Shown: positions 21,354 to 37,570, counted from the stretch's first letter. The stretch: 64,000 nucleotides of DNA from an uncultured Candidatus Berkelbacteria bacterium (GCA_903877885.1 CAIRFN010000009.1:8218-72217), one strand, 5' to 3'. The notes: a model not told the origin generated them from the letters alone. Numbers and translations: made by a program.

Positions 21354-21574
21354 TTATTATCCTCCAAGAACCATTCTAGAGTTTCTGGTTCGAATCTTAA
21401 TTGGTATGAGTTAGCTTCGTCAGACATAAAAAAACGAAAAATGGTTTGGCCGCCCTCTTTAAAATGGTAAACAAGATTAAGTTTGAGGTTTTTATATAAA
21501 CGATCGTTTCGACGAAACGCCAGAGGTTTAATTTTTGGACCATCAAATTGAATTAGAACTTTAATTGGTTGCAT
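21350..21574 (-). CDS. Small hypothetical protein, first gene of the dinB operon (4-nt overlap with dinB).
   Basis: 74-aa ORF overlapping the dinB start. Preceded by the promoter carrying the candidate SOS box. Confidence 0.45.
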   Translation of the reverse strand: MQPIKVLIQFDGPKIKPLAFRRNDRLYKNLKLNLVYHFKEGGQTIFRFFMSDEANSYQLRFEPETLEWFLEDNN

Positions 21575-21580
21575 ATATCT

Positions 21581-21610
21581 ATTCTACACGAACAAAAAGC
21601 GAACGTCAAA
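21581..21610 (-). promoter_or_regulatory. Promoter of the dinB operon (TTTGAC-17-TAGAAT on the minus strand) carrying the direct repeat GTTCGC-N6-GTTCGT in its spacer; candidate LexA operator.
   Basis: Minus-strand read TTTGACGTTCGCTTTTTGTTCGTGTAGAAT. Same architecture as the lexA promoter at 25217..25246. Confidence 0.5.
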
Positions 21611-21664
21611 CTCAATAAAATTAACATCAAAAACCCCGGAAAAAATCCGGGGCGCGAGGGTTGG

Positions 21665-21871
21665 TTAGAATTGTTCGTCGCGCTTGGCGCAGGCGGCAAC
21701 GTTGATCTCATGGGCGATCCGCGGCCAGTCGGTTTCGCGATTGGAAGTAAAGTCTGCTAAGTGAGCCATGACACGGTTAAGTGAGAGAAAGATACCGCGA
21801 CCGGCGAGAATTTGCCGGATGTAAGAAACAGATGTTCGATCGGTTTGATCGAAAGTGATTTGGTTAAGCAT
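21665..21871 (-). CDS. Hypothetical small protein (68 aa) inside the high-GC island.
   Basis: Strong RBS AAGGAGG 8 nt upstream of the ATG at 21871. Followed by terminator hairpin ccccgg-aaaaaat-ccgggg plus U-run (21625-21655). GC-rich codons. Confidence 0.4.
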   Translation of the reverse strand: MLNQITFDQTDRTSVSYIRQILAGRGIFLSLNRVMAHLADFTSNRETDWPRIAHEINVAACAKRDEQF

Positions 21872-22038
21872 ATTCTTAACCTCCTTTGTAGTATTGGGCG
21901 CGATATGAACTAAAAAAGGCCTTTGCGCTGGAAGCGAAAGACCCAATTCTAGTTATTTGTGTGGCAATTAACTAAAACATAAGCCTTTCGCTTGCGCGAA
22001 GGTCTTTATCGTTTTTGCAAATTGACATAAAACAAATA

Positions 22039-22057
22039 GCCATAATCTAATTATGGC
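22039..22057. promoter_or_regulatory. Perfect 8-bp inverted repeat GCCATAATctaATTATGGC in the divergent intergenic region of the high-GC island; candidate operator.
   Basis: Read directly. Sits between the two divergent island genes, about 110 nt upstream of the consensus promoter. Confidence 0.35.
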
Positions 22058-22160
22058 GAGATTCTAAAACTTTGTCAACCCCACACAATTTCTTCCTGTA
22101 AAACGGCTTCCAGCCTGTTCTTACGGGAGCGAAATCTGCGGGGCAAGGTGCGGATGACTC

Positions 22161-22189
22161 TTGACTTTTGGGTGGTTTTGTGGTACAAT
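22161..22189 (+). promoter_or_regulatory. Consensus sigma70 promoter TTGACT-17-TACAAT driving the 22387 gene, with a roughly 190-nt structured leader.
   Basis: ttgacttttgggtggttttgtggtacaat. The leader contains a GCATGC...GCATGC stem and a ctctcaa-gga-ttgagag hairpin. Confidence 0.5.
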
Positions 22190-22386
22190 TTAGTAGTTTC
22201 GAAAATGAAATATGGTTTAAACCTGTTAAAAACTTTCCTTGTTGGAAATCTGGTTGCATGCTTTCCCCTCCTTGCATGCAGCCGGTTTTCTCTCAAGGAT
22301 TGAGAGTCCTTAAAAATCGAATAGCTAATACACGCGTCAAAGCCTCAAAGAGGTGGAGATGAACATTCTCAAAAAGGAGAAGAACG

Positions 22387-22863
22387 ATGAGAATGCATTT
22401 CACGCTGGTCAATGAGTTAAATCCGAATCTGCCTCAAGCAATTCGGGATGTCGTCAGTCAAATGACGGCGCGTCTTGCCCTTCAAGCTCCGGAAGCATTA
22501 GCAAACGGGGTCTACATTGCCAGGCCGATTTCTGATGGTCTAAGTGTCCATATTAAGTCGGACTCGAGTTTCGAATTCGACTATATGGGTCTTGGCGCCG
22601 ATTTCGGTAAGCTGCCTCTCGGGCTCAAAGATGCTGACGTCACAGGTATTTATATCTATGACGAAGGCGCGGAGTGTTGGCCGGTTCTCGGCCGATACAA
22701 AGGCCGTTCGGAAAATGGCGGTGAACTCTGGCGTGCAAGCGTCGGGCAATTCGCCAGCAACAGCCTGCCAATGTGGCGGCTGGAATTAACCGCCGACACA
22801 ATCGATTGGGCAGTCCGTGGCTGGGAGCAAATCCTTAGTCACGAAATCGACCCGATCGTCTAA
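22387..22863 (+). CDS. Hypothetical protein (158 aa) inside the high-GC island.
   Basis: RBS AAAGGAGAAG 5 nt upstream of ATG. GC-rich codon usage unlike neighbouring genes. No recognisable domain. Confidence 0.5.
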   Translation: MRMHFTLVNELNPNLPQAIRDVVSQMTARLALQAPEALANGVYIARPISDGLSVHIKSDSSFEFDYMGLGADFGKLPLGLKDADVTGIYIYDEGAECWPVLGRYKGRSENGGELWRASVGQFASNSLPMWRLELTADTIDWAVRGWEQILSHEIDPIV

Positions 22864-22871
22864 ATTAGGGA
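22852..22871. repeat. Left arm of a 20-bp inverted repeat pair (CCGATCGTCTAAATTAGGGA) flanking the PaaX-like gene; overlaps the stop codon of the 22387 gene.
   Basis: Reverse complement matches 23417..23436 at 19 of 20 positions. Confidence 0.6.
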
Positions 22872-22893
22872 TAGCTTTTAATCAAATAGAAAA

Positions 22894-23406
22894 TTAATCT
22901 TTATCTATATTAAAAAGTCGGCGGAATTTGTTCTCGTCATTTAGCGCCTTACAAATAAAATAATTAACTTCACCCTGAAGGTGTAATAAGTTAATAAGTT
23001 TCTCGATATTTATAGCAATATCATCTGGTGAAATCCAAACAGACTTTTGAATCGGTTTACAATTAAGTTCCGATAATTTAGATCTGAAAACTCGACGACT
23101 TTTGGCATATTTTTCCGGAATATCAAACGCAATAATTCGCCAATAACCGTCCCAATGATTGTTAATATTTGGCTTAATCAATCTGATAGAACCTTTTGTT
23201 GTTAGTTTAAGTTGTTTTCTGTTTTTGTTCTCAATTTCGACCAAAAATCCATGCTTTTTAAGATTGTAGACCGCTTTAGAAAGTTTGTTTGTAGCAACAT
23301 CAAATAAGTTTGGTATCGATTTATATGGATAGAAAATATCGCCGCCAGCTGATAATATCTCTTCGATAACAGACAATACTTTTTTGGTTATATTTTCTTT
23401 TTTCAT
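22894..23406 (-). CDS. PaaX-family-like transcriptional regulator (winged-helix N-terminus plus PaaX_C-like C-terminus).
   Basis: C-terminal block WDGYWRIIAFDIPEKYAKSRRVFRSKLSELNCKPIQKSVWISP resembles the PaaX C-domain (W.G.W.l..f..PE..R..R..L...G...l..gVWisP). Confidence 0.55.
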   Translation of the reverse strand: MKKENITKKVLSVIEEILSAGGDIFYPYKSIPNLFDVATNKLSKAVYNLKKHGFLVEIENKNRKQLKLTTKGSIRLIKPNINNHWDGYWRIIAFDIPEKYAKSRRVFRSKLSELNCKPIQKSVWISPDDIAINIEKLINLLHLQGEVNYFICKALNDENKFRRLFNIDKD

Positions 23407-23416
23407 TGTTTTTTTG

Positions 23417-23436
23417 TCCCTAAATTAGACGATCGG
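23417..23436. repeat. Right arm of the inverted repeat pair (TCCCTAAATTAGACGATCGG), 10 nt upstream of the PaaX-like gene start.
   Basis: 19 of 20 match to the reverse complement of 22852..22871. An additional direct word TAGGGATAG lies at both ends. Confidence 0.6.
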
Positions 23437-23508
23437 ATATTCTAGGGATAGTTAACATTAATTTAATCAGTAAAACGAGTTATGTTTATTATGGTTATGA
23501 TAATATAA

Positions 23509-24135
23509 TTATATCTTTATTTCTTCACCAGTACCGACGAGGTCGATTTTGTTGTTACGGATTAGAAAACCTTGTTGGTCAGTAAGAATCCGGACCGGAT
23601 ATTTAGATCGGTTGGCTTCGTGTTTGATTGTACTGTGCCATTTTGGCGCGTAGTGAACAAAAAGATTAAAAGGCACTAAGTTTAATCCGGTTAAATCCTT
23701 CAAACCGATAACGTTTCGATCAGCGCTTTTCCATAATCCGGTTTCGATAGTTTGGCCACAAACCATACTGCCAGCGCTGACGCCAATATAAATTTTTCCT
23801 TGTGCTATCATATCTTTTACCACTTCATCAAACCCGCTCTCGCGAATAGCATTTAAAAGATAGAAAGTGTTGCCGCCTTGAACATAAATTATATTAATGT
23901 CCTTTAAAAGTCTGAATAATGTTTTTTGGTTTTTGCCTTCAATATCAATTTCTTCAATATTAAATCCCAATTCTTCCATGATTTTGCGATCTTTTTCGAC
24001 AAAGGCTTTATCGGTCGAAGGTTTTGATGCCGTGGTGATATAAGCGACATTGATTTGATTGGCTGGGCGGGGTAGAATCTTTAAGATTTCATCTTTAATA
24101 TCCATACCAGCAGAGGTTAAAAGTATTGTTTTCAA
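23509..24135 (-). CDS. Peptidase E / S51 family (cyanophycinase-like) peptidase.
   Basis: Layout NVAYITTAS...YVQGGNTFYLL...IYIGVSAGSMVCGQTIE is typical of S51 dipeptidase E. Confidence 0.65.
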   Translation of the reverse strand: MKTILLTSAGMDIKDEILKILPRPANQINVAYITTASKPSTDKAFVEKDRKIMEELGFNIEEIDIEGKNQKTLFRLLKDINIIYVQGGNTFYLLNAIRESGFDEVVKDMIAQGKIYIGVSAGSMVCGQTIETGLWKSADRNVIGLKDLTGLNLVPFNLFVHYAPKWHSTIKHEANRSKYPVRILTDQQGFLIRNNKIDLVGTGEEIKI

Positions 24136-24212: not shown

Positions 24213-24566
24213 TTATTCCAGCCGATGCTCCTCGAAAGTTACTCGTCGGTCTTTAACAAGTTCGGCGATTCGTTTTTGCTTGTCGCTCATTCGACTAGTG
24301 GCGGTTTTAAATTCAATAAAAACTATTTTATCTTCATCAAATTGAATGCCATCGATCGGACTACCAATAAAACGAAAGTTTTGCGGATCATAGGGAAAGT
24401 CTTTCAAAAATGGCATAAATTGTTCGGTCATTTTACCGTATTTTGAGGAGAGCGATGATTTTTGAAAGGAAATTGCTGCGTGTCTGTCTGATGCTCGGCG
24501 CCATAACCAGAAAAACAACATGGTGAAAAACAGTAAAATCAAAATTGTATAAATTTGCCAAGACAT
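24213..24566 (-). CDS. Membrane-anchored PD-(D/E)XK endonuclease related to archaeal Holliday-junction resolvase (Endonuc_Holl-like), co-transcribed downstream of lexA.
   Basis: N-terminal TM segment. FIGSPIDGIQFDEDKIVFIEFKTATSRMSDKQKRIAELVKDRRVTFEE carries a D...E.K nuclease core. 22-nt gap after lexA. Confidence 0.5.
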   Translation of the reverse strand: MSWQIYTILILLFFTMLFFWLWRRASDRHAAISFQKSSLSSKYGKMTEQFMPFLKDFPYDPQNFRFIGSPIDGIQFDEDKIVFIEFKTATSRMSDKQKRIAELVKDRRVTFEEHRLE

Positions 24567-35880: not shown

Positions 35881-35925
35881 TTCCTAACCGTTCCATACAC
35901 CTCGTAGGTGTATCAATTGGTTTGC
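35881..35925 (+). repeat. REP-like element copy a (TTCCATACACCT-cgt-AGGTGTATCAATTGG hairpin with conserved flanks).
   Basis: 8-bp stem ATACACCT/AGGTGTAT with loop CGT. Same element at 36811..36855 (same orientation) and 37532..37570 (inverted). Confidence 0.65.
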
Positions 35926-36810: not shown

Positions 36811-36855
36811 TTTCTAACCCTTCCATCCACCTCGTAGGTGTATCAATAGGTTAGA
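36811..36855 (+). repeat. REP-like element copy b; overlaps the RAYT stop codon.
   Basis: tttctaacccttccatccacctcgtaggtgtatcaatagg. Confidence 0.65.
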
Positions 36856-37514
36856 TAATCAAGTAAAATCTTTTTAATAATTTTTAGTTCACGTTGATAA
36901 GAAATTCGGTCATCAACAAAATCCTTATATTTTTCTGGTGCAAAATCCATTAAATTATCTAAATTACAAATTTTTCGAGTATATGGCATAATATATTCAT
37001 TATATGACGAGTATTCATAATCTTCTGGTTTATCGACCAAATTGGCCGTGACAGGGTTTAGATGGATATATCGCGTCGTGTGCAACAATTGTTCATCATC
37101 TTCGATATGCTTGTTTTTAAACCGACTTTCCCAAAGAGGACCAATTCTATCGTGTTTAATATTAAAATACCGGCTATAACTATTCAGAACCTTAGACATG
37201 AAATTGGAAATTCCGCCATCTTCAAGTTGCTGTAGTACTAAATGAATATGAGTGGGCATAATACAAAATGCAATGATATCAACCGATCGGTTGCCATTTC
37301 TATGTAATTCATTAATAATTCTTGTTTGAGTCGAAATTGCTAATCGCTTAAACATATGATATTTATAGCAAAAATCCTTGTATTGAAAAAGATTCAGCAT
37401 TTCAACCAATCTTAAATAGTCATAATCATTATTAAATATAATGTACTTAGCGATACTTCGAGTAAAAATATGGTAGCATTCATTAGTTCTTAATGGATCT
37501 GTTCTGTATTGCAT
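36843..37514 (-). CDS. REP-associated tyrosine transposase (RAYT / TnpA_REP, IS200-like Y1 HuH enzyme).
   Basis: Conserved CYHIFTRSI block. HuH motif IMPTHIHLVLQ. Catalytic-Tyr motif TRYIHLNPVTANLV. Flanked by inverted REP-like hairpins. RBS GGAGGGG. Confidence 0.7.
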   Translation of the reverse strand: MQYRTDPLRTNECYHIFTRSIAKYIIFNNDYDYLRLVEMLNLFQYKDFCYKYHMFKRLAISTQTRIINELHRNGNRSVDIIAFCIMPTHIHLVLQQLEDGGISNFMSKVLNSYSRYFNIKHDRIGPLWESRFKNKHIEDDEQLLHTTRYIHLNPVTANLVDKPEDYEYSSYNEYIMPYTRKICNLDNLMDFAPEKYKDFVDDRISYQRELKIIKKILLDYLTY

Positions 37515-37531
37515 TTCCCCTCCTTATCCAA

Positions 37532-37570
37532 CCAATTGATACACCTACGAGGTGTATGGAAAGGTTAAGA
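37532..37570 (-). repeat. REP-like element copy c, inverted relative to copies a and b and immediately upstream of the RAYT start.
   Basis: ccaattgatacacctacgaggtgtatggaaaggttaaga. Reverse complement matches copies a and b including flanks. Confidence 0.65.

Follow-up and report, generated by a model that had tools for sequence, protein, structure and literature searches.

Why does a small regulator gene lie, in its entirety, between two nearly identical inverted repeats? The question is raised by a stretch of DNA of 64,000 nucleotides from an uncultured Candidatus Berkelbacteria bacterium (GCA_903877885.1, CAIRFN010000009.1:8218-72217), hereafter called the window, in which a gene for a PaaX-like protein of 170 amino acids (aa) is bracketed by two 20-bp arms. 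We propose that the arms belong to two copies of a palindromic operator of the PaaX-like repressor encoded between them, with the gene autoregulated and the downstream copy truncated. To this reading we give a probability of roughly 0.6, because the product has a PaaX-like fold, because the sites have a fitting geometry and because the sites track the gene across its relatives. In the Patescibacteria (candidate phyla radiation) very few transcription factors are recognisable and gene regulation is almost uncharted. A small PaaX-like protein without the usual C-terminal domain, carrying its own long two-part sites on both sides of its gene as suggested here, would offer a concrete, testable pairing of protein and DNA in organisms that are difficult to cultivate. 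Two questions follow: why a second operator should stand behind a repressor gene, and why the presence and position of the unit vary among close relatives.

The inverted repeat and the gene it encloses

22852-22871: left arm of the inverted repeat, CCGATCGTCTAAATTAGGGA.
23417-23436: right arm of the inverted repeat, TCCCTAAATTAGACGATCGG.
22894..23406, minus strand: PaaX-like gene, 170 aa, winged helix plus PaaX_M (Cas2-like) domain (Pfam, AlphaFold2, Foldseek).
23417..23451, no strand: upstream site, a 32-bp quasi-palindrome plus TAG (palindrome proper 23417-23448, TAG to 23451).
22852..22874, no strand: downstream half-site, with core CGATCG at 22853-22858, a 7-nt linker and outer box TAGGGATAG at 22866-22874.
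22387..22863, plus strand: convergent gene, 158 aa, GC content 0.52, GC content at third codon positions (GC3) 0.55, its last two codons and stop coming from the half-site.

The inverted repeat is real. Its arms are complementary at 19 of 20 positions (95%) and separated by 545 nt, the gene lies between them with gaps of 22 nt on the left and 10 nt on the right, and the left arm covers the final 12 nt, stop codon TAA included, of the open reading frame (ORF) 22387..22863. An earlier note on this DNA had reported all of these facts correctly, together with a direct word present on both sides; this word is TAGGGATAG, whose only occurrences in the whole window are at 22866 and 23443. When repeats of 20 nt with at most one mismatch and arms 50-1000 nt apart were counted, the window held two, the second one flanking a different gene (Y1_Tnp, described below), whereas 200 first-order Markov simulations averaged 0.005. 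A third copy of the arm 20-mer with up to three mismatches was not found in the 64-kb window, where 0.02 would be expected.

What the earlier note lacked is that both arms are parts of something larger. The right arm is merely one half of a 32-bp quasi-palindrome, TCCCTA AATTAGA CGATCG GATATTC TAGGGA (23417-23448), namely its promoter-proximal half together with the core, next to the ATG at 23406. The outer boxes TCCCTA (23417-23422) and TAGGGA (23443-23448) are each separated by a 7-nt linker from the core CGATCG (23430-23435), giving the pattern TCCCTA-N7-CGATCG-N7-TAGGGA, with symmetry at 14/22 positions of the arms. The window has 19 CGATCG sites, and none of the others sits in an extended palindrome. 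The geometry of this one equals that of the relatives' sites, the outer box beginning 11 nt from the centre just as it does at loci L015 and L100.

The left arm, in turn, is a half-site, which matches the gene-proximal half of the upstream site in inverted orientation (19/20) and its distal half in direct orientation (17/22). All five differences between the direct copies fall inside the 7-nt linker, so that core and outer box agree at 15 of 15 positions. To the left of the half-site the symmetry is at background (8/22), the distal half of the palindrome being absent, while relatives have a full palindrome 0-120 nt past the stop codon at the equivalent position. We considered that the missing half might be at the far end of the GC-rich segment, and it was not there: the 12-bp palindrome AAACGATCGTTT (21498-21509) is part of an ORF and lacks an outer box.

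The enclosed gene encodes a protein of the PaaX type reduced to two domains. Pfam assigns PaaX_M (PF20803) to residues 83-156 (E=2.2e-19) and gives no match to PaaX_C (PF08223), the product stopping at residue 170, whereas Verrucomicrobiota relatives of the longer form do carry PaaX_C. The N-terminal part is a probable winged helix: a profile of 32 homologues matches the winged-helix regulators 6jbx and 1tbx over residues 23-81 (weakly, E about 0.01), and the AlphaFold2 model (mean predicted local distance difference test score 79) has a helix-helix-strand-strand topology at residues 6-68. Foldseek returned E. coli PaaX (8a39, 17% identity) as the top PDB match, followed by Cas2 structures. 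The search for homologues gave 36, the closest non-identical one being 51% identical, with relatives from Patescibacteria. Across the PaaX-like relatives the first strand of the Cas2-like domain contains an invariant FDI motif, which we take to resemble the YDI motif of Cas2; a sequence alignment of this domain with solved Cas2 chains, made for the catalytic Asp, was not usable. The called neighbours are relA/spoT, hisS, lexA, an Endonuc_Holl gene, an S51 peptidase gene and dinB, and no paa genes were found among the genes called in ~12 kb around the PaaX-like gene.

The same bracket in relatives

Scanning one genome per species yielded 80 loci from Patescibacteria, Verrucomicrobiota and Kiritimatiellota. 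Palindromes were counted at 81 loci with both flanks, where near means within ~120 nt of the gene ends and flank means >300 nt away. At these 81 loci, palindromes that are mostly centred on CGATCG adjoin the start codon, the stop codon or both. The density of perfect palindromes of at least 20 bp is 95 times higher near the gene ends than in the flanks (39 vs 5), and for those of at least 30 bp the factor is 378. Perfect palindromes of at least 12 bp occur near the start at 42 of the 81 loci, near the stop at 39 and on both sides at 25. A two-sided palindrome bracket of this kind around PaaX-like genes was not found described in the searchable literature.

The close relatives examined (L008, L011-L013, L015-L019, L099 and L100) all have a CGATCG-centred palindrome before the start codon, at a distance of 19-108 nt (19-42 nt in all except L017), the centre usually being CGCGATCGCG. 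In many of them this palindrome occupies the -35 position of a TATAAT-like -10 element, with a Shine-Dalgarno sequence next. Most also have a second copy past the stop codon, which often has the -10-like flank as well and so lies in the promoter region of the following housekeeping gene (argS, dnaG, pgk or an asparaginase gene). The two sites around the regulator gene are direct copies of an asymmetric module made of the palindrome plus the -10-like element. More distant relatives mostly keep the CGATCG centre, although CATATG, CTATAG, CCATGG and CAATTG are also seen. Paralogues within one genome, which are only 28-73% identical, have differing palindromes, and the upstream and downstream sites of any one locus match each other. 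Orthologous loci are syntenic and retain their sites, with nucleotide identities of 68-77%. L096 lacks the PaaX-like gene and both sites, which we count in favour of operators.

The downstream palindrome is about as frequent with a convergent neighbour (13) as with a co-directional one (14), by crude ORF calls; it is thus no mere operator of the following gene and appears to be part of the gene unit. As a side observation, a motif (A/T)TAACAGGTTT recurs ~20-25 nt upstream of the palindromes in L015-L019, L099 and L013, and is also present in the window at 22218-22232 (minus strand), in the leader upstream of the 158-aa gene.

Symmetry of the sites

The symmetry profile of the palindromes, seeded on the 8-bp core only and with flank controls flat at 0.27, has two peaks: within the core (positions 1-6) it stands at ~0.67 at positions 5-6, then it dips to ~0.55 at positions 7-11, rises up to 0.74 at positions 12-18 and reaches background by ~25. 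The outer boxes are ~27-30 bp apart, centre to centre. At orthologous loci of Pontiella the core CCACGATCGTGG and the outer box TATATCATCTA are kept, while the linker of 3-4 nt between them is often asymmetric and holds clustered mismatches. The mismatches of imperfect palindromes have no G-T bias on either strand (5, 5 and 6). Because of the two-peaked symmetry, the mismatches in the linker and the missing G-T bias, a two-part protein-binding site appears to be a better description than a hairpin. Differences between upstream and downstream palindromes are compensated in 44 cases and not in 7, a ratio that is not independent evidence, as the sites were chosen for palindromy.

Some relatives have palindromes that are perfect over a much greater length:

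L074: upstream 68 bp, downstream 48 bp.
L029: upstream 48 bp, downstream 40 bp.
L035: upstream 40 bp, downstream 32 bp.
L072: upstream 32 bp, downstream 40 bp.

Palindromes of 40-68 bp with perfect symmetry, linker included, are seen at L074 (2956-3780), L029, L058, L072, L085, L090 and others. Template-switch correction of near-palindromes during replication could keep such long palindromes perfect.

A putative autoregulatory operator

The upstream site ends 10 nt from the start codon and would therefore overlap the core promoter or a very short leader. A dimer bound there would block synthesis of its own protein, that is, the gene would be under autorepression. The downstream site would be a second operator, near-constant after genes of the PaaX-like family, of which the gene-proximal half survives in the window; the distal half may have been lost in a rearrangement that brought the unit next to the 3' end of the convergent gene (158 aa). 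The remaining half-site could be a relic, it could be an auxiliary half-operator that loops with the upstream site, or it could act as a barrier to convergent transcription.

The closest known system is PaaX of E. coli, which binds TGATTC-N27-GAATCA and represses its own promoter Px (PMC9493321), with further operators at Pa and Pz. Both proteins have a winged-helix N-terminus and a central Cas2-like PaaX_M domain, 8a39 being the best structural match of the window protein, and the long inverted operator of widely spaced boxes in E. coli has a putative counterpart in the window (TCCCTA-N20-TAGGGA). The proteins differ in that the window protein ends at 170 aa without PaaX_C, the domain assigned to binding of the effector phenylacetyl-CoA (review PMC9493321), and in sharing only 17% identity with the structure. 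The box sequence and the spacing differ as well, the window site has a CGATCG core and a second site follows the gene, and the genes called in ~12 kb at the window locus include no paa genes.

The two-sided arrangement has a likeness elsewhere. In the immunity region of phage lambda, cI lies between OR and OL, with three sub-sites in each operator, a 2.4-kb loop and a helix-turn-helix protein. There too a repressor gene has its own palindromic operators on either side, as predicted for the window with its full site upstream and half-site downstream, and many PaaX-like relatives have full sites on both sides. The lambda repressor is nevertheless unrelated to the PaaX-like protein, for which looping or oligomerisation would be hypothetical.

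Several points weigh against reading the sites as operators. The analysis shows the anatomy of the DNA, the domains of the protein and how the sites are associated with the family and arranged in it; binding, repression and the role of the downstream copy are inferred from these. The core in the window is degenerate, CGATCG alone instead of the CGCGATCGCG of the relatives, and a consensus scan did not find a sigma-70-like promoter on the strand of the gene at the upstream site. Further sites were not found in the 64 kb, so that no regulon is visible. A second operator after the gene is unusual, and it does not simply serve the neighbour, whose orientation makes no difference to it (13 vs 14). 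The perfect symmetry over 40-68 bp in several relatives goes beyond the needs of an ordinary operator. Lastly, some relatives have the unit, some lack it and some have it elsewhere, and homology breaks at the palindrome centre, which hints at an additional role of the sites in recombination.

A relocating unit as an alternative

That last point leads to the alternative that survives best, although we consider it rather unlikely: the site-gene-site unit moves, or is gained and lost, by breakage and recombination at the palindrome centres. Host processing of cruciforms or hairpins, or the product's own Cas2-like domain, could provide the route, and the arms would be the ends of a cassette, in addition to or in place of being operators.

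The evidence for it comes mainly from the convergent 158-aa gene. Only three weak relatives of its product were found among 1.8 billion representative proteins, two of them with usable gene context, and syntenic homologues of the gene are present at L096/L097 and L098. At L096/L097 a PaaX-like gene is missing, and the order RelA/SpoT-HisRS-LexA-Endonuc_Holl-S51 leads directly to the convergent 158-aa homologue. In the 85-nt spacer that separates the latter from S51 there is a terminator hairpin, which L096 and L098 have in common after the 158-aa gene and which is missing from the window. The amino-acid identity between the window and L096 is 92% for LexA, 77% for HisRS, 54% for S51 and 30% for the 158-aa protein. 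The three homologous proteins align up to an invariant Pro156 (codon CCG, 22852-22854), after which the relatives continue for nine more residues whereas the window protein has two residues and a stop, supplied by the arm. The homology thus reaches to 1 nt or less from the palindrome centre (22855|22856). If the two CGATCG cores are joined on paper, the tail has seven residues, compared with nine in the relatives; an excised or empty junction would read …GACCCGATCGGATATTC….

At L100 the order is Holl-S51, a conserved hairpin, the PaaX-like gene and an asparaginase gene, the PaaX-like gene having three full sites (TTCCCAAA…CGATCG…TTTGGGAA), and at L096 the conserved hairpin is followed directly by the asparaginase gene. 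A single backbone is therefore found in three states: without the unit (nothing between S51 and the 158-aa gene at L096), with the unit at one position (between S51 and the 158-aa gene in the window) and with the unit at another (between the hairpin and the asparaginase gene at L100). As a separate observation, the Endonuc_Holl gene between lexA and the S51 gene (24213-24566, minus strand, 117 aa) is kin of the archaeal Holliday-junction resolvase; it lies ~0.8 kb from the palindromes and is kept both in L100 and in L096, the latter without the PaaX-like unit.

Relocation would also suit the finding that the unit adjoins unrelated housekeeping genes (argS, dnaG, pgk, cca and the asparaginase gene) in different lineages, that the downstream palindrome is there regardless of the orientation of the neighbour, that genomes contain several diverged copies, and that the FDI motif of the Cas2-like domain is invariant. 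Yet the three states may reflect either relocation of the unit or differential loss of two old paralogues, and such loss suffices to explain them: the PaaX-like proteins of the window and L100 are 48% identical, compared with 85% for LexA. The paralogues are old and the orthologous loci stably syntenic, the window has no further copy of the arm, viral relatives and short-form plasmid relatives are lacking, and the unit has one orientation and one position in 18 assemblies. Its right-hand boundary is not definable, and a nuclease activity of the Cas2-like domain is purely inferred. The earlier note had suggested a mobilised cassette; the mobility finds some backing in the absence of the unit at L096, its other position at L100 and the break at the palindrome centre, while the machinery of an insertion sequence (IS) or a miniature inverted-repeat transposable element (MITE) does not.

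A stronger form of this alternative would make PaaX_M genes with their two cognate palindromes into autonomous relocating cassettes, the palindromes serving both as operators and as break-and-join sites at CGATCG-type centres, with participation of the Cas2-like domain or of host cruciform processing. We regard it as doubtful, a little more so than relocation as such. If true, Patescibacteria and Verrucomicrobiota would possess a minimal module of a new kind, selfish or regulatory.

Two known kinds of module are comparable to such a unit. RAYTs, the transposases associated with repetitive extragenic palindromes (REPs), belong to the HUH/Y1 transposases, and REPs are scattered in numerous copies. 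As in the PaaX-like unit, a single gene lies between inverted copies of a palindrome that its product is thought to recognise, but the PaaX-like protein has no Y1_Tnp domain and its palindromes are essentially confined to the ends of its own gene. The pdif sites, known from Acinetobacter plasmids, have an 11-6-11 structure with conserved XerC and XerD arms. Modules bounded by dif or pdif resemble the unit in their gene size, in their inverted arm-core-arm sites with a 6-bp centre and in their presence or absence among relatives; unlike these, the sites of the PaaX-like genes have a structure of 13-6-13 or longer, differ from lineage to lineage and follow the regulator that the gene encodes.

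We also considered whether the GC-rich segment next to the unit might be a foreign insert and rejected the idea, as the syntenic homologue at L096 is equally GC-rich and the segment holds RNA-like hairpins native to these bacteria. Since the 158-aa gene is syntenic and GC-rich at L096, its high GC content is a lasting trait and does not point to recent transfer. The values themselves are 0.50-0.52 for GC and 0.55 for GC3 at 21665-21871 (minus strand) and 22387-22863 (plus strand), compared with a GC3 of ~0.3 in the genes of the genome.

Weaker alternatives

An element acting at the RNA level, in which the arms would pair with each other or fold locally within the regulator mRNA, a 20-bp stem stabilising the mRNA or masking AGGGA, seems very improbable to us. 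In its favour, the arms flank the gene on the same strand, at 10 nt from the start codon and 22 nt from the stop codon, AGGGA is within the upstream arm 9 nt before the ATG, and some distant relatives have a palindrome ending 4-9 nt ahead of the start. In many close relatives (among them L008, L015, L016 and L099), however, the palindrome precedes the -10-like element and would be left out of the transcript, the G-U bias expected among mismatches is absent on both strands, and the dip in symmetry at the linker followed by a rise at the outer box is unexpected for a continuous stem. The mismatch types and the linker dip likewise disfavour a hairpin of single-stranded DNA. Rfam gave no match over 21400-23600 at either gathering or E-value thresholds.

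A fortuitous repeat, or an inert leftover of local duplication without function, is hard to credit. It would fit with a downstream copy that is merely a half-site and with the lack of further copies in the window, but chance predicts 0.005 repeats of this kind in a window, the direct copies differ within the 7-nt linker only and are identical at 15/15 positions of core and outer box, and the same bracket is found at dozens of unrelated loci.

Least probable is an invertible, phase-variable segment of 545 bp flipped by a site-specific recombinase, which the earlier note had proposed from the 19/20 inverted repeats around a whole gene and had suggested checking by looking for both orientations: all 18 assembled contigs with the gene, consensus sequences from several samples, have the same orientation and position relative to the neighbours, no tyrosine or serine recombinase domain was found among the genes called ~6 kb either side, flipping a complete gene with its own upstream site changes nothing obvious, and the sites are palindromic across the family, with direct asymmetric flanks in close relatives. 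The locus thus shares with fimS, hin and similar segments the short inverted repeats a few hundred bp apart, while the nearby tyrosine or serine recombinase that these need and the two orientations in which they occur are not seen here.

An IS or MITE, also suggested in the earlier note, is not supported: the product has a regulator-type fold (winged helix plus Cas2-like domain), there are two arms only and the paralogues are old, with no transposase, extra copies or target-site duplication seen. On reading the sequence outside the arms we saw no such duplication, the 22-nt direct repeat being the site itself. Other copies of the arm, which the note had advised searching for, were found neither in the 64-kb window nor in JGI metagenomes, where a scan returned one match in a cyanobacterial-type histidine kinase gene with HIP1 sites, judged to be chance. 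An origin from phages or plasmids was rejected, as no viral relatives of the PaaX-like protein were found and plasmids have only distant, full-length actinomycete PaaX regulators and no short form.

Other features of the window

The second strong inverted repeat mentioned above encloses a gene of a different type:

36821-36852 and 37530-37561: arms of ~32 nt, bracketing the Y1_Tnp gene.
36843..37514, minus strand: Y1_Tnp gene, 223 aa, IS200-like, possibly RAYT-like.

Each of these arms contains a hairpin, ATACACCTACGAGGTGTAT, of which there are three copies in 1.7 kb (35895-35913, 36825-36843 and 37539-37557). The Y1_Tnp gene and its arms are likely a unit of the RAYT/REP type.

Two conserved hairpins of ~65 nt lie upstream of the 158-aa gene. 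The first, at 22078-22147, has counterparts in L016 (2017-2086), L017 (1162-1223) and L013 (8117-8188), with seven base pairs kept through changes on both sides in the four genomes; in L016 and L017 the counterpart directly precedes the start codon of dnaG, and no Rfam family matches it. The second, at 22236-22300, is very conserved and is found again at L096 (about 605-670) and, on the reverse strand, at L100 (about 1640-1700). Its loop reads CCCCUCCUU on one strand and, on the other, AAGGAGGGG followed by AUG, where a short ORF opens with MQP(D/G)F. Between the window and L096, the ~230 nt that precede the 158-aa gene share 77% identity, which makes them far better conserved than the gene.

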